A stretch of DNA of 57,015 nt from the IMG/VR virus record IMGVR_UViG_2522572023_000010. One strand, 5' to 3'. Under the pieces are notes generated by a model. It saw only the letters and a list, made by a program, of their open reading frames with translations, had not been told where the DNA came from and made no database searches. Source of the stretch: a virus. Its lineage: Duplodnaviria > Heunggongvirae > Uroviricota > Caudoviricetes. The translations under genes and the position numbers were made by a program. Shown piece by piece: positions 36,449 to 50,160 of this stretch; positions within the stretch are counted from its first letter, which is position 1, and each line of letters begins with the position of its first letter.

Positions 36449-36926
36449 CGAATTTCTCCCGTGTACAGGAACAGAGTTAAAAAGCCGGAACCGGAATCAA
36501 ATCACAGGATGACCATCTGCCAGTGGCTGGTCGTAAAAAAAAGGCCGCGCCATGCGCAGCCGAAAATAAAGGGATAACGATGATAGTTTGAGAAAAACAG
36601 AAATAACACTTTTGTGGCAAAGCATGGTGCCGGGTGCCTCCCGGTGAATTCAGTACCAGCACCTGAATCCGCGATTATCCCATATACCTACTCGCTGATT
36701 GCCCCTCCGCACAGGGGGATTCACCATGCAGTAGTATTTTTAATAAACAGTAAACAAAAAAATCAAGCATTATGCAGGCTGTTTCTTTTTATCACCGGCC
36801 ACAGCAATACCACAATGCCGCAGACCAGCACCCCATCCGCCAGCACCGACATGATTCTGCTGGTGAAATCCACCATCACCACCAGAAACAGCAGGAGTGC
36901 AGCCACAGCCAGGCGCAGTTTTACCG

Positions 36927-38124: not shown

Positions 38125-38201
38125 TGGCGCGTTGTACTGGATTCGAACCAGTGACCGATTGCTTAGAAGGCAATTGCTCTGTCCGACTGAGCTAACAACG
38201 C
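38125..38201 (-). tRNA. argO: tRNA-Arg (anticodon UCU)
   Basis: 77 nt GCGTTGTTAGCTCAGTCGGACAGAGCAATTGCCTTCTAAGCAATCGGTCACTGGTTCGAATCCAGTACAACGCGCCA; cloverleaf with anticodon loop CTTCTAA. Confidence 0.9.
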
Positions 38202-38214
38202 ATGATGCTGATAA

Positions 38215-38291
38215 TGGACCGCCATCGGGGACTTGAACCCCGCACAGCCAGCTTCGAAGGCTGACGCTCTATCCCGATGAGCTAATGGCGG
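38215..38291 (-). tRNA. argN: tRNA-Arg (anticodon UCG)
   Basis: 77 nt CCGCCATTAGCTCATCGGGATAGAGCGTCAGCCTTCGAAGCTGGCTGTGCGGGGTTCAAGTCCCCGATGGCGGTCCA; anticodon loop CTTCGAA. Confidence 0.85.
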
Positions 38292-38298
38292 TATGTGA

Positions 38299-38374
38299 TG
38301 GTGGCCCTTGCTGGATTTGAACCAGCGACCTGGCGATTATGAGTCGCTCGCTCTCACCACTGAGCTAAAGGGCC
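38299..38374 (-). tRNA. ileZ: tRNA-Ile2 (anticodon CAU, lysidine type; formally Met-like)
   Basis: 76 nt GGCCCTTTAGCTCAGTGGTGAGAGCGAGCGACTCATAATCGCCAGGTCGCTGGTTCAAATCCAGCAAGGGCCACCA, close to E. coli tRNA-Ile2. Confidence 0.85.
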
Positions 38375-44478: not shown

Positions 44479-44939
44479 TCTTCACCCGATGCAGCGCGCT
44501 TGCTGCTTTTCCGTAAGCACCGCTCACGACGTGCCAGAAAATTGTTTCGTTCTGGCTGGGAGTGGCTTTCACGGAATGCCGCCATCCACACCGTTGCAGC
44601 ACGACGGTATAAGCCCCTGGACTCCAGTTCTTCAGCCTGGCGGGTCAGGCACAAAATCACACGGGGATCGTTAGTGCCGACATAGAAATTGCGCACAGGT
44701 CTGGTTTCACGAACTGGTTGTGGTTCCGGTTCCTGCGCTCTCTCAGTCAGGCGCGGGAAATGTCTGCGTGTATCTCCTTCACAACGGTGAGCCACACGCC
44801 CACTCTGACGTAACTTGCTTGCTGACTGCAGAACGCGCTGCCGTGAGTAACCTGTAAAAGCATCCGCAATGTCTCCGGAAGTACACCCCGGATGGGCTTC
44901 AATGAATTTCTGAACGTCATTTAACAGACTCATGATCAC
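44445..44939 (-). CDS. PerC-like transcriptional regulator (HTH N-terminus plus PerC-type C-terminus)
   Basis: C-terminal LESRGLYRRAATVWMAAF resembles the PerC/Pch signature GLWRRAAxRW. Confidence 0.5.
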   Translation of the reverse strand: MIMSLLNDVQKFIEAHPGCTSGDIADAFTGYSRQRVLQSASKLRQSGRVAHRCEGDTRRHFPRLTERAQEPEPQPVRETRPVRNFYVGTNDPRVILCLTRQAEELESRGLYRRAATVWMAAFRESHSQPERNNFLARRERCLRKSSKRAASGEEWYLSGNFVGA

Positions 44940-45877
44940 CCCCTGAATCCTGCCGGGATCTGGCTGTAGTCCACGTTGTCGTAACTGGATTTGAAGTACG
45001 GGTCTTCGCGTTTTTCGGTGTACGTGCTGACGGACGGCGATAAGCGCAGGGAAAGCTCATCCCATTTTTCCCGCAGCTTCGACGGGCTGAGCACGTTACG
45101 GCACCAGAACGGATCGCGGCTGACGCGGCTGTACATCTCGCAGATTTGTTTGTGAGTACGACCATCCTGCACACACATAAGGCGAATTTCGTTTGCCCAG
45201 GCTGTCCAGTTCGGTTCTTTGGGACGAACCACCTCGCCGTCACATTCGGCGGCCTGCTCGTACAGGGCGATGATTTTTTTCCAGAGCCACTGTGCGCAGG
45301 TCAAATCATCCTGCGTTCCCCACTGGCGCTTTTTAGGGCTGAATACAACCGCATCAGGATGGCGAGTTAAAAACTCCTGTTCAGCCGTCTGCGTGTCCGG
45401 TTGCGAAGCGTCCGGACGAGAAGTTTTTTTATCTGACGGATCATGTTTTGATTTTACTGACGGATCCCCGCCAGATTCTGACGGGTGAAAACCCGCTTTT
45501 TTGCCAGATTTCGACGCATCAAATTTTGACTGGTCAGATTTTGATGCGTCAGATTTTGACGGGTCAGAATCTGACAGTTGAGAAAATGCCGCTGCCTGAA
45601 GCTTCGCAACGTTAAGCTGATAAACATTCGACGCATTGCGGTTACCCTGGCGACGCGCCTTACGCGTTAACCAGCCTTCTGCTTCCAGCCGTGCGATAGC
45701 CGTTCTGACGGTGCTCATCCCCGCACCAATCTGGCGGGCAATGGTTTCAATTGATGGCCAGCACACACCTTCGTCATTACTGAAATCAGCCAGGCGGGCC
45801 ATAATTGCCACGCTGGATAACTTCATGCCTGACGCAGCGCAACCATCCCATACATAGCCGGTTAATTTAGTGCTCAT
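44936..45877 (-). CDS. replication initiator (O-like, winged-helix N-terminus) with internal iteron origin
   Basis: N-terminal HTH region; central SKSDASKSDQSKFDASKSG repeats encoded by DNA iterons; position after the cro/cII-like genes. Confidence 0.75.
   Translation of the reverse strand: MSTKLTGYVWDGCAASGMKLSSVAIMARLADFSNDEGVCWPSIETIARQIGAGMSTVRTAIARLEAEGWLTRKARRQGNRNASNVYQLNVAKLQAAAFSQLSDSDPSKSDASKSDQSKFDASKSGKKAGFHPSESGGDPSVKSKHDPSDKKTSRPDASQPDTQTAEQEFLTRHPDAVVFSPKKRQWGTQDDLTCAQWLWKKIIALYEQAAECDGEVVRPKEPNWTAWANEIRLMCVQDGRTHKQICEMYSRVSRDPFWCRNVLSPSKLREKWDELSLRLSPSVSTYTEKREDPYFKSSYDNVDYSQIPAGFRG
45425..45590. repeat. iterons (about 7 copies of a 15-bp motif CAGATTTTGACGGGT) inside the replication gene; putative origin
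   Basis: cagattctgacgggt / cagatttcgacgcat / caaattttgactggt / cagattttgatgcgt / cagattttgacgggt / cagaatctgacag at regular spacing. Confidence 0.7.
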
Positions 45878-46834: not shown

Positions 46835-47098
46835 TTACGCAGTTGAACCGCTAACTTTTGAATAGCACTCAGGTAATCCATCATTTGGATTGGGGTAAAT
46901 ATCAGGACGCAGTTCATGAGGGGTCACGGACCAGTTTCCCAACTCACAAAGTTGTAAAACCCGTTCTGACGGGACTTGATTGTTAATTACCCAATTGGCG
47001 ACGGATTGAGTGGACTTAAAACCAAAGCGACGGGCTACTTCAGATAAAGACTTTCCCGCAGCCTTTACTGCTTTCTCTGTGTAGTTTTGAGATGACAT
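46835..47098 (-). CDS. cro: Cro-like (YdaS-type) helix-turn-helix regulator
   Basis: 87 aa; HTH LSEVARRFGFKSTQSVANWV; divergent from the repressor gene; GAGGAGAAAGG ribosome-binding site. Confidence 0.75.
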   Translation of the reverse strand: MSSQNYTEKAVKAAGKSLSEVARRFGFKSTQSVANWVINNQVPSERVLQLCELGNWSVTPHELRPDIYPNPNDGLPECYSKVSGSTA

Positions 47099-47104
47099 AC
47101 CTTT

Positions 47105-47165
47105 CTCCTCTGAAATTCAGAGGGATGATGCTACTTAAAATAGCAAATTGCAACTACTTAAAATA
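47105..47165. promoter_or_regulatory. right operator/promoter region (OR-like) between cro and cI
   Basis: Perfect 17-bp palindrome CCTCTGAAATTCAGAGG (47107-47123) and two copies of GCTACTTAAAATAGC-like near-palindromes (47131-47145, 47151-47165). Confidence 0.6.
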
Positions 47166-47909
47166 GAAATGACTAGCGCGTGTGATGTGAGTAATCTTCT
47201 ACCTATGGTAGAAGAACAGAAGTATCCAGATTTCGCCAAGAGACTAAACGAATTGATGACAATCAAAGGAATCTCTGTCACTCAACTCAAAAGTCTTGTG
47301 GGCGTTACATATGAAATGGCTCGTCGATACACAATCGGCGCAGCGAAGCCACGTGTCTCTGTCATGAGTAAACTTGCGTTGGCTCTTGGAGTATCAGCTT
47401 CATATCTAGAATATGGTGTTGGAGATAGAGAGGAATGTAAGGAAATGGCAAGCATCCCCAATCCAACAAAGCCCGATGTATACAGGATAGAAGTTTTGGA
47501 TCTTAGCGTTAGCGCAGGACCTGGGACCTATATGCTTTCAGACTATGTTGATGTGCTCTACGCCATTGAGTTCACAACTGAACATGCCCGTTCTCTTTTC
47601 GGAAACCGTTCTCAGAATGATATAAAAGTTATGACGGTAAATGGAGATAGTATGTCCCCAACTCTTGTTTCCGGGGATCGATTGTTTGTCGACATTTCCG
47701 TTCGCCACTTCCAGACTGATGGAGTTTACTCTTTCGTTTACGGTAAGACTTTCCATGTTAAACGTCTACAAATGCAAGGCAACAAACTAGCTGTTCTTTC
47801 GGATAACCCCGCCTATGAGAAATGGTACATTGATGAGAAGTCGCAAGATCAGCTTTATGTTATGGGTAAGGCACTGATTCATGAGTCGATTAAATATAAT
47901 CGACTTTAA
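47148..47909 (+). CDS. cI: CI-like repressor with S24 (LexA-type) autopeptidase domain
   Basis: N-terminal HTH (MTIKGISVTQLKSLVGVTYEMARRY), C-terminal S24 motifs including GDSMSPT (catalytic Ser) and a downstream Lys; exact start uncertain (ATG overlaps an operator). Confidence 0.85.
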   Translation: MQLLKIEMTSACDVSNLLPMVEEQKYPDFAKRLNELMTIKGISVTQLKSLVGVTYEMARRYTIGAAKPRVSVMSKLALALGVSASYLEYGVGDREECKEMASIPNPTKPDVYRIEVLDLSVSAGPGTYMLSDYVDVLYAIEFTTEHARSLFGNRSQNDIKVMTVNGDSMSPTLVSGDRLFVDISVRHFQTDGVYSFVYGKTFHVKRLQMQGNKLAVLSDNPAYEKWYIDEKSQDQLYVMGKALIHESIKYNRL

Positions 47910-48142
47910 TTAGGCATCTAGCAATCGTTAAAGCAAACGAGCACAGATGATAAAAGATAAGGATAGAAAATCTTTATACAAATTTTATTTGGCACATTGG
48001 TCCATAAAAATGGATTAACACTGAGCTGTTACCCTAAGTAAGAAAAGATAAAGACCATATGTTATCTTTGGGTGCGTTACTAACACAAAAAAACCAAAAT
48101 AAAACATAAATAATAGACAATTCTATACAACAGGATACGATA

Positions 48143-49228
48143 ATGATTAATGAACGTACTGAAGCGACAGATGGGGTAGCAGATATGATTTCCACCAATA
48201 CAAAATATTTAGTATGGAACAACAAAGGTGGTGTAGGAAAAACTTTTCTTACATATAATCTTGCCGTTGAGTTTGCTATATCTCATCCGGATCAAGATGT
48301 TGTGGTTATTGACTCATGCCCTCAATCAAACGTTTCAGAAATTATTCTTGGTGGCAATGGTACCGGGGAAGAAAATCTAAATAAATTGCGAGACAGAAAT
48401 GTTACAATCGCAGGTTATATCAAGGAGCGTTTTAGCAAATCTCCTTTGTCTCGTTTAGGAAATGAATCTTCTTACTTTGTACGAGCCCATGATGTTAATG
48501 CAAAAATGCCAGAGAACTTATATATTCTTCCTGGTGATGTCGATCTTGATATCTGTTCACGCTTAATATCTCACATTGGCTCATCCCCAGTAAAAGAAGC
48601 ATGGAAGAAAAGCCGATCTTTGCTGGTAGATCTAATAGCATCTTTTGAAGCCGATAAAAACATTTCTGACAGAGCAAAAACATTTTTTATTGATTGTAAT
48701 CCAAGTTTTGCCAGCTACACAGAATTGGGAGTAGTCGCGGCAAATAGAATAATTATCCCTTGCACTGCCGATGCTGCATCAATTCGCGGAATAAAAAACC
48801 TTGTTAAACTTATTTATGGAGTGTCTATTGACAAGTCAGAACAAGATGAAATGTTCTTAGATTTCAACAAAGAAGCAAAGCAAAACCTTATCGAACTACC
48901 TGAACTACACCTTTTCGTACAAAACCGCTCAAGAACTAATGAAAGTGATGCAGCAAAAGCATTCAAATCACATGCAGAAGAGATCAAAAGAATCACGGAT
49001 GACCTGTTAAATACACATCCTCATCTGTTCACAAATGTGGCTACTTTCGAGAGAGTTCAAAATGTCAAAGATGGTAATACTCTTGCAGCAATAATAAACC
49101 ATGAGGGATGCCCTTTAAGTAGGCTGCAGCATAAGAGTTACACTATCTATGGTATGGCGACCCAAGCTAATAGAGCACAAATTGAAGCACTAGAATCTGA
49201 TGTTTCAACAGTAGTCAAGTGTCTGTAA
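48143..49228 (+). CDS. ParA/MinD-family ATPase (361 aa), lone gene in the rexAB position; candidate exclusion or defence gene
   Basis: Deviant Walker A KGGVGKT, Walker B-like FFIDCNPSF; AT-rich coding sequence; followed by an intrinsic terminator. Confidence 0.75.
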   Translation: MINERTEATDGVADMISTNTKYLVWNNKGGVGKTFLTYNLAVEFAISHPDQDVVVIDSCPQSNVSEIILGGNGTGEENLNKLRDRNVTIAGYIKERFSKSPLSRLGNESSYFVRAHDVNAKMPENLYILPGDVDLDICSRLISHIGSSPVKEAWKKSRSLLVDLIASFEADKNISDRAKTFFIDCNPSFASYTELGVVAANRIIIPCTADAASIRGIKNLVKLIYGVSIDKSEQDEMFLDFNKEAKQNLIELPELHLFVQNRSRTNESDAAKAFKSHAEEIKRITDDLLNTHPHLFTNVATFERVQNVKDGNTLAAIINHEGCPLSRLQHKSYTIYGMATQANRAQIEALESDVSTVVKCL

Positions 49229-49263: not shown

Positions 49264-49288
49264 GCCCGACCAACCGGTCGGGTTTTAT
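49264..49288 (+). terminator. intrinsic terminator after the ParA-like gene
   Basis: CCCGACC-aacc-GGTCGGG followed by TTTTAT. Confidence 0.65.
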
Positions 49289-49525
49289 ACTCGTAGCCTG
49301 CTTAATAACACTGTTCCTGACCCGTTGTATCCATAGTTCCCACTATTTTCCCCCAAATTATTACTATCTAATTAACCTAATAATTAAACCAAAACAAAAG
49401 ACACTCGATATTTTCTATACGTAACTACGCCACATCACCCCATCTGTGAAAAACCTTTTAATTCATAACGTTATATAGAAAACTAAAAATTAAATACACA
49501 CTTCTACTTTTTGTTGTTGATTTTT

Positions 49526-49572
49526 GCTACTTTTAGTAGCATCATTATCTGAACAAACAACAGACTGTTGTT
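49526..49572. promoter_or_regulatory. left operator (OL-like) palindromes
   Basis: GCTACTTTTAGTAGC (49526-49540) shares the GCTACT half-site with the OR repeats; perfect 17-bp palindrome AACAACAGACTGTTGTT (49556-49572). Confidence 0.5.
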
Positions 49573-50160
49573 AACGAAAGGTTGGTTGTAACACGGCGTA
49601 TGGCACATGCGTCGTTAGCGGTCTGGGGACGTTAAAGGGGACAATCCACTCCTTGCTCGGGCAAACAAACCAGGTAGCCGGAATGTGCAAGTCAATGAGG
49701 ATGCTGATAAGACGCCTAACCAGCGTGGCGATTCGGTTTGACGCCTGGGAAGAGACCAGGGTGCAACGATGAGGGCATTTATGGAACCGCGACAAAGTGT
49801 GGTGCCGTAACTGGCTAAGTGCTCTCAGCGTTGTGGTGAATGCGCAGGCTGATGCGCGAAAGACATTGCAGCTATTGCGGAAAAGAGCTGTTCGGCGGGG
49901 CAATTAAACGCCCGTGAGAGTCTGAAATAACCGCAAGCCGGAGATCAGCACCGGTCACCACAACAGCCACTGCTTTGGCGGTACCAGTTTGTACACTTGC
50001 TTCCGGCTGGTACCGCTCTTTTTACAAAACAGAGAAGAGCATCACCGGACGACGGGCTCATAACCCAATCCACCCGGGCGGCTGCCACCGCAGGTGCTCT
50101 TCTCTGTTTTGTGGAGAAACCAACCGACCTTGCAGGGTCGATATGATGAGGAGCAGCAAA

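Follow-up and report, generated by a model that had tools for sequence, protein, structure and literature searches.

The 57,015-nucleotide (nt) stretch of DNA analyzed here in full (the window; IMG/VR record IMGVR_UViG_2522572023_000010) is a lambdoid prophage, and directly downstream of its cI-like repressor gene lies a gene for a lone ParA-like ATPase of 361 amino acids (aa). We found that this gene is very probably the Escherichia coli allele of gipd474, a single-gene anti-phage defense determinant of prophages. The gene has therefore already been described, E. coli homologs included (PMC12724215; Bosma, Noireaux & Bowden, Appl Environ Microbiol 2025;91(12):e01384-25). The defense function was shown for the 93%-identical Salmonella ortholog, and it is by sequence that we extend it to the E. 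coli allele. New here are the spread of the family well beyond the Enterobacteriaceae, the group covered by that paper's survey, its mobility as a lone gene, the diversity of the repressors encoded upstream of it, its presence in type I restriction-modification (R-M) and Cas9 loci, and a relative in P1-like phage-plasmids.

In the Gifsy-1 prophage of Salmonella Typhimurium 4/74, the published gene, STM474_RS13505 (STM474_2742; 1086 nt), occupies the immunity region as a single gene, and a further copy lies in Gifsy-3 of strain 14028s (PMC12724215). No other paper in the literature collection searched mentions gipd474 by name. The knock-out primer arms given in the paper translate to DNGRVEATDRPTE and ALESDVSTVVKC, which are found exactly, as residues 2–14 and as the C terminus, in two Salmonella members of our family set (P0001 and P0134). 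Both cluster with the window protein at 90% and are 92.8% identical to it (335/361). None of the 26 differences between the E. coli and Salmonella proteins lies on any of the 80 invariant columns of the family, and nine lie within residues 2–18, which include the disordered N-terminal tail. The genes have the same length, with GGVGKT at residues 29–34 of both products. Where the paper counts as GiPD474 homologs all proteins with at least 70% identity and 70% coverage (PMC12724215), the similarity of the window protein extends over 361/361 residues. The window gene also has the location typical of the family, in a prophage immunity region beside cII, cro and the repressor gene with the integrase gene further downstream, and the Walker A motif of the family within an AAA_31/ParA-type domain. 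Clade I of the published homologs explicitly includes Escherichia (PMC12724215).

Deleting gipd474 in S. 4/74 allowed Felix O1 (FO1) to plate again, and a copy on a low-copy plasmid brought resistance back (PMC12724215). When introduced into Salmonella LT2 or E. coli K-12, the gipd474 plasmid reduced plating of T4 by ~5 logs and of Alf5 by ~5.5 logs and also strongly lowered plaquing of FO1, with no block to T7, SP6, S16, Jbel, VpaE1 or LPST153 (PMC12724215). Its transcript level in exponentially growing lysogens exceeds 500 transcripts per million (TPM), and the authors suggest, as yet without confirmation, that the gene acts after adsorption (PMC12724215). The initial annotation of the window had considered a lysogen-expressed exclusion or defense role plausible, an idea now supported by deletion, complementation and E. 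coli K-12 expression of so similar a gene in the same slot; its remark that no stand-alone ParA-like defense gene had been described has been outdated since November 2025, when gipd474 was reported.

The product is listed in RefSeq as a 'ParA family protein' (WP_000606712.1), and residues 28–34 of its sequence form the deviant Walker A motif (KGGVGKT) that had been picked out, together with the ParA signature, in the initial annotation. It matches Pfam AAA_31 (3e-16, residues 24–227), CbiA and PHROG 164, 'ParA-like partition protein' (2e-46, residues 9–350). The P-loop fits the pattern KGGxxGK[ST], and its lysines K28 and K33 do not vary among 63 family members or among relatives with as little as 31% identity. 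The same holds for D57, D184 and P187; N186 is nearly invariant over this range, and T34 is nearly so in the family at 55% identity or more. With the P-loop, the signature lysine and a ParA/Soj fold all present, the product belongs to the ParA/MinD deviant Walker A proteins of the SIMIBI class. Within that class, the NCBIfam models for ParA, MinD, BcsQ and ArsA all scored far under their cut-offs, among them ParA_partition (NF041546; 48.9 bits against a cut-off of 180) and the MinD equivalog (TIGR01968; 15.9 bits against 212.9). The C terminus, ...ALESDVSTVVKCL, is not MinD-like and, in an informal comparison by eye, lacks an amphipathic membrane-targeting tail of the MinD type.

These last results bear on the reading in which the gene serves lysogenic conversion, acting on division, the nucleoid or virulence in the manner of MinD or FleN, and the phage resistance seen with plasmids is an artefact of over-expression. 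We regard this as very improbable; beyond the failed MinD equivalog and the tail, deletion of the native single-copy gene in S. 4/74 was enough to restore FO1 plating, and resistance is therefore not only an effect of over-expression.

We rejected M15 (ATG at 48185) as the true start of the ORF (open reading frame). In its favor, many distant homologs begin at the equivalent position, a 347-aa database annotation exists, and residues 1–14 (48143–48184) are hypervariable and modeled as disordered; we nevertheless preferred the annotated start because the AGGA-N7-ATG arrangement (48132–48145) is conserved across divergent orthologs.

The window is 100% identical to E. coli O145:H28 strain RM12761, with the prophage integrated between btsS and mlrA. 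Its genes run cII-like (− strand), cro-like (−), cI-like (+) and ATPase (+), followed by a 930-nt gap and then yfdP, yfdQ and yfdR and, further on, xis, int and mlrA (Table 1). Two palindromes, TGCTACTTAAAATAGCA at 47129–47145 in the right operator region (OR) and TGCTACTTTTAGTAGCA in the left one (OL), are the only matches to TGCTACT-N3-AGTAGCA with at most one mismatch in the 57-kb window, and no such match appeared in 100 shuffles. Both lie within a 47-nt inverted repeat whose arms, the two operator regions, are 79% complementary. The palindromes and the inverted repeat thus place OR and OL on either side of cI and the ATPase gene, which is the layout of cI-rexA-rexB in lambda. The slot between cI and OL carries rexAB in lambda, bstA in BTP1 and remAIN in Gifsy-1 of 14028s. 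It was to the rexAB position, directly 3′ of a CI-like repressor gene on the same strand, that the initial annotation had assigned the gene, noting that downstream palindromes share the half-site GCTACT with the cro-cI operators, and both points hold.

Table 1. Features of the immunity region around the ATPase gene, with positions in the window.
Feature	Position	Strand	Remarks
cro-like (YdaS/HTH) gene	46835..47098	-	divergent from cI
OR operator region	47125..47171	.	separates the cro-like gene from the cI-like gene; TGCTACTTAAAATAGCA, with a second copy of CTACTTAAAATAG 23 nt further along
cI-like repressor gene (HTH_3 + Peptidase_S24)	47205..47909	+	directly 5′ of the ATPase gene
Leader travelling with the ATPase gene	48100..48142	+	Shine-Dalgarno AGGA at 48132-48135, 7 nt 5′ of the ATG
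Gene for ATPase of predicted ParA/Soj fold	48143..49228	+	very probably the E. coli allele of gipd474; 361 aa, 1086 nt
Intrinsic terminator	49264..49290	+	GCCCGACC-AACC-GGTCGGGT + TTTTAT
OL operator region	49499..49545	.	inverted copy of OR; perfect palindrome TGCTACTTTTAGTAGCA at 49525-49541

The gene had also been described as AT-rich and closed by a clean intrinsic terminator, and so it is: GC content is 36% at 48001–49000, compared with 48–54% in the four preceding 1-kb bins, and the hairpin at 49264–49283 has eight pairs, six of them GC, before its TTTTAT tract. This hairpin (CCCGGCC..GCCGGGTTTTT) is conserved in 7/7 aligned orthologs, past which the sequences diverge. At the other end, orthologs with unrelated upstream flanks show conservation that begins ~45 nt 5′ of the ATG and takes in AGGA-N7-ATG. 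Judging from these alignments of enterobacterial orthologs, the ATPase gene is a self-contained lone-gene cassette in which the ORF is preceded by a leader with the ribosome-binding site and followed by a terminator of its own. A putative promoter-like sequence, TAGACA-16-TACGAT, lies at 48114–48141 (a match to the consensus only), and the 233-nt spacer between the cI-like gene and the ATPase gene contains no terminator-like site. A search of the whole window with Rfam gave no match in or near the ATPase locus. Beyond OL, the ~600 nt between the OL/PL (leftward promoter) palindrome and yfdP (49546–50160) contain no plus-strand ORF of 40 aa or more. This region includes a long branched hairpin at 50019–50117 with a basal stem of ~25 bp (RNA minimum free energy −51.6 kcal/mol, z −6.6 relative to shuffles; no Rfam match), which may serve the early-left transcript as a site of processing, termination or antitermination.

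A ParA fold, a deviant Walker A motif and the names given by PHROG 164 and RefSeq would all suit a true partition ATPase serving a plasmid-like stage of the phage. We consider this explanation largely refuted and give it next to no credence. The prophage is integrated at mlrA with genes for an integrase and an excisionase, and is thus not an extrachromosomal replicon. No ParB is annotated by RefSeq anywhere in the prophage, the neighbors of the ATPase gene being cI upstream and yfdP 930 nt downstream. Tandem Repeats Finder and repeat scans of 44–52 kb revealed no centromere-like repeat array; the tandem repeats near the locus were the iterons of a replication gene (45505–45568), a two-copy repeat in the cII-like gene and an A-rich tract. 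Added to this are the shortfall of the ParA_partition model and the chromosomal location of nearly all E. coli copies described below. The initial annotation had seen no ParB partner or centromere-like repeats nearby, had held partition to make little sense for an integrated lambdoid prophage, and had named a cognate ParB/parS as what would overturn the defense idea; we looked for one, and these judgments stood. The iterons themselves, four to five 15-nt repeats (CAGATTTTGACGGGT) inside a replication-initiator-like gene (44936–45877, − strand), are probably the phage origin.

A second line of evidence against partition came from P1-like IncY phage-plasmids, in which a lone ParA-family gene (NZ_AP028844.1, 10592–11647; ~150 phage-plasmid records) encodes a full-length, 35%-identical relative of 351 aa right after the immI ant/kilA/HTH genes. 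The same phage-plasmids keep their own repA-parA-parB (1–3633), 7 kb away, and the relative thus comes on top of the partition system and does not substitute for it. This gene may represent a second branch of the same defense family.

The initial annotation had also credited the protein with a long C-terminal extension. We built an AlphaFold2 model of the 361-aa ATPase on 63 homologs, which had a mean predicted local distance difference test score (pLDDT) of 87.6 and a predicted template modeling score (pTM) of 0.89, with pLDDT below 50 in residues 1–14 only. An hhalign comparison with Bacillus subtilis Soj (using a sequence entered by hand) paired residues 20–222 with Soj 3–163, with ~42 inserted residues in this span and, by difference, ~50 more across the last third. 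Past residue 222 the model continues with a helix, β6, a long helix, β7, a helix, a hairpin and a C-terminal helix, an order that we take to be that of the canonical C-terminal third of Soj. The AAA_31 match stops at residue 227 because the Pfam model spans only the N-terminal two-thirds of the fold. The extension is thus no separate module: the model and the Soj comparison give one ParA/Soj fold. As modeled, the protein is a complete ParA/Soj-type fold with family-specific insertions, helical and at roughly residues 63–125 and 226–250, and with no effector domain. When we scanned ten longer distant relatives (449–595 aa) for fused domains, only AAA_31 and CbiA were found, with weak ParA or ArsA_ATPase matches in three. 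An equivalence of R264 with Soj R189, proposed by eye, was set aside as a lead only, since MAFFT misaligned the C-terminal third and hhalign reached only residues 20–222.

Of 5426 complete E. coli genomes, 71 have an intact copy of the E. coli allele with at least 99% identity; 70 of these copies are chromosomal and one lies on an IncF plasmid together with the same prophage segment. This sole plasmid-borne copy belongs to the avian pathogenic E. coli (APEC) strain E18005, whose 205-kb conjugative IncF plasmid carries cI-ParA-yfdPQR at 155841–168923 of NZ_CP126947.1. At E ≤ 1e-5, 1041 clusters matched the window ATPase. An exhaustive HMMER search of 1.84 billion representative sequences returned only 66 matches at E ≤ 1e-30 and 334 at E ≤ 1e-10, and the family is a small clade with sharp limits within the ParA superfamily. 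Homologs of 340–362 aa with 54–68% identity occur in Campylobacter, Aggregatibacter, Acinetobacter, Moraxella, Alysiella, Gallionella, Azospirillum and cable bacteria.

In Klebsiella phage ST11-VIM1phi8.2 (83% identity) and Pseudomonas phage phi297 (38%), a relative of the ATPase gene lies 3′ of a repressor gene and on its strand. We found 80 viral contigs with a relative, 76 of which had upstream sequence to inspect, and in 65 of these 76 an ORF of 100 aa or longer, encoded on the same strand, ended no more than 700 bp upstream of the relative. The upstream ORFs comprised 37 distinct proteins with a mean column identity of 19%, and matched HTH_3 (24), Peptidase_S24 (18) and Phage_CI_repr (7). 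Given such diverse repressors, the ATPase gene is tied to the slot and not to one immunity type.

This strong association with repressors across very different immunity types, along with the RexA slot between cI and OL, is what might be expected if the primary role of the gene lay in the prophage's own cycle, for instance in tuning lysis and lysogeny as lambda RexA does or in stabilizing the genome, with exclusion as a side effect. We think this unlikely, because homologs with 54–68% identity also lie in non-phage surroundings (between housekeeping genes, in a type I R-M locus and beside Cas9), and because plasmid-borne gipd474 confers protection in prophage-free backgrounds, E. coli K-12 among them. 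Among ten distant, non-enterobacterial contexts, no neighbor was conserved. In Azospirillum, one homolog (L009, 7001–8038) interrupts a type I R-M locus that also encodes Mrr and RhuM, separating hsdR from hsdS/hsdM, and another (L101, 7001–8038) adjoins Cas9-Cas1-Cas2 and RhuM; both are linked to IS1595 transposase genes and small DUF6471 genes, which in L101 flank the homolog on both sides. Other homologs lie beside HicAB in an Acinetobacter prophage and, in Campylobacter, on an integrative element that also encodes ParE and RhuM, and one further context has an integrase gene nearby. We count the R-M, Cas9, HicAB and ParE/RhuM neighbors, as company typical of defense islands, in favor of the defense reading.

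The fold suggests how such a protein might act. The ParA of pNOB8, among the closest structural neighbors, was solved bound to nonspecific DNA, and the other top-ranked ParAs bind DNA as well. In the closest structural relatives, a partner protein that docks at the dimer face (ParB, MinE or McdB) switches the ATPase. By analogy, ATP binding would bring two monomers together as a sandwich dimer by way of the signature lysine K28, and the dimer would associate with DNA, as its closest structural relatives do non-specifically. The two helical insertions would remodel the face at which ParB, MinE and McdB peptides dock, and a phage-specific protein would stand in for these partners. Its engagement would lock or misdirect the DNA-bound ATPase, upon which replication or handling of phage DNA would fail. 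We lean tentatively, with well under even confidence, toward such direct interference, in which the ATPase cycle is the switch and a phage protein the trigger. The specificity of GiPD474 is narrow within phage families, with T4 blocked and S16 and Jbel not, and FO1 and Alf5 blocked and VpaE1 not (PMC12724215), a pattern that a protein trigger, or counter-defense in the insensitive phages, fits better than a general DNA feature does. The prophage itself could be spared in a simple way: because no terminator-like site parts the ATPase gene from cI, induction could lower its expression, which we infer might serve as self-immunity.

The main alternative to direct interference is abortive infection, in which a phage cue turns the ATPase toxic to the host, for example through nucleoid coating or runaway ATP hydrolysis, and the cell dies before it can produce phage. 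In the absence of an effector domain, the ATPase or DNA-binding activity would itself have to be the effector. RexAB, from the corresponding slot of lambda, is abortive. BstA is too (PMC8585504), and the ~5-log drops in plating would be compatible with such a route (PMC12724215). Constitutive expression at >500 TPM argues that the resting protein is non-toxic, which does not address the triggered state. On balance, we hold the abortive route to be a serious contender, albeit a doubtful one.

Taken more broadly, the window gene and gipd474 might be the founding members of a widespread, cassette-like, single-gene immune module in which ParA/MinD chemistry is itself both sensor and effector, a view that we put forward as speculative. 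A false 'ParB' from the phage would switch an ATP-dependent, DNA-associated dimer, which would then stop the replication or handling of phage DNA with no nuclease, protease or membrane effector involved, and the position in the cI unit would provide self-immunity through shut-off at induction. The intact ATPase motifs, the lack of an extra domain and a distribution from Enterobacteriaceae to cable bacteria, partly in R-M and CRISPR loci, are compatible with it.

Several observations weigh against the defense reading or its mechanistic elaboration. The phenotype was shown on the Salmonella allele, so the phage specificity of the E. coli allele could differ, and the published evidence on GiPD474 consists of plaque and spot assays (PMC12724215). 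No protein model in PADLOC-DB 2.0 (2023), which is older than the GiPD474 paper, matched the window protein beyond a noise-level hit to Drt5 (E 0.007, 13.6 bits), leaving the family with no independent assignment to defense. Four of the ten non-enterobacterial contexts (Aggregatibacter, Alysiella, Electrothrix and Moraxella) are lone inserts among housekeeping genes, with no defense neighbors. Co-transcription with cI is a possibility only, and a promoter-like site lies directly 5′ of the ATPase gene. Finally, R264 is invariant in the close family only, being T or Q in branches at 31–38% identity, and the proposed dimerization, DNA binding and phage partner are read solely from fold and motifs.

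Elsewhere in the prophage, the Rfam small RNA STnc100 (101 bits) and three tRNA genes (Arg, Arg and Ile in RefSeq) lie at 36589–36755 (−) and 38128–38374 (−), downstream of the Q antiterminator region, which is the usual cargo position in Shiga toxin (Stx)-type lambdoid phages. The prophage end at ~3880–7520 carries type III secretion effector cargo broken up by remnants of IS3-family elements: an NleG pseudogene, nleG7 and a frameshifted espS.

The ParA/MinD class is known for positioning DNA and cell components, and a lone immune member is therefore a mechanistic gap worth filling. The wider family, the defined cassette edges, the R-M and Cas9 company, the coexistence with ParAB in P1-like phage-plasmids and the lack of an extra C-terminal domain provide starting material for that work. 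Moreover, ~1.3% of complete E. coli genomes are probably pre-equipped with a block to T4-like and Felix O1-like phages, which is relevant to lysogens of O145:H28 and O157 type and hence to phage biocontrol of Shiga-toxigenic E. coli.

Compared with the type Ib ParA/Soj and McdA positioning ATPases (PDB 8ray, 6noo, 6iub and 2bek), the window protein is 17–19% identical and has ~110 extra residues, present as insertions. Its gene, unlike theirs, has no partner gene for ParB or McdB and no centromere, its product fails the partition equivalog model, and the role known for its family is defense, whereas theirs is positioning. The best sequence match in the PDB is DIP2308 of Corynebacterium diphtheriae (3pg5, a structural genomics entry; E 8e-6), which likewise has 361 aa, a P-loop resembling WNNKGGVGKT and a DxxPQxN motif, but is only ~20% identical.

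With respect to position, lambda RexA/RexB are encoded like the window protein 3′ of cI, on the same strand and between OR and OL, and like gipd474 they provide lysogen-expressed exclusion of T-even type phages. The two systems differ in that the window has one gene and not two, with no membrane component and no relationship in sequence or fold; our Pfam and PHROG scans of the window protein yielded ParA-type families only, with no RexA/RexB homology. BstA, of BTP1 and other prophages, and remAIN are also defense systems encoded 3′ of a prophage repressor gene. Like the window gene, bstA has its own Rho-independent terminator, and like gipd474 it is highly expressed in the lysogen (PMC8585504). 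The BstA and remAIN proteins are unrelated to the window ATPase, however; remAIN comprises three genes, and BstA has a cognate self-immunity DNA element, aba, none being known for the window gene. The closest counterpart is GiPD474 itself, a single gene in the same slot beside a cII/cro/repressor module with the integrase gene downstream, from which the window gene differs by its 26 amino-acid substitutions, by the repressor next to it and by its prophage, a lambdoid element at mlrA in E. coli of O145/O157 type in place of Gifsy-1.

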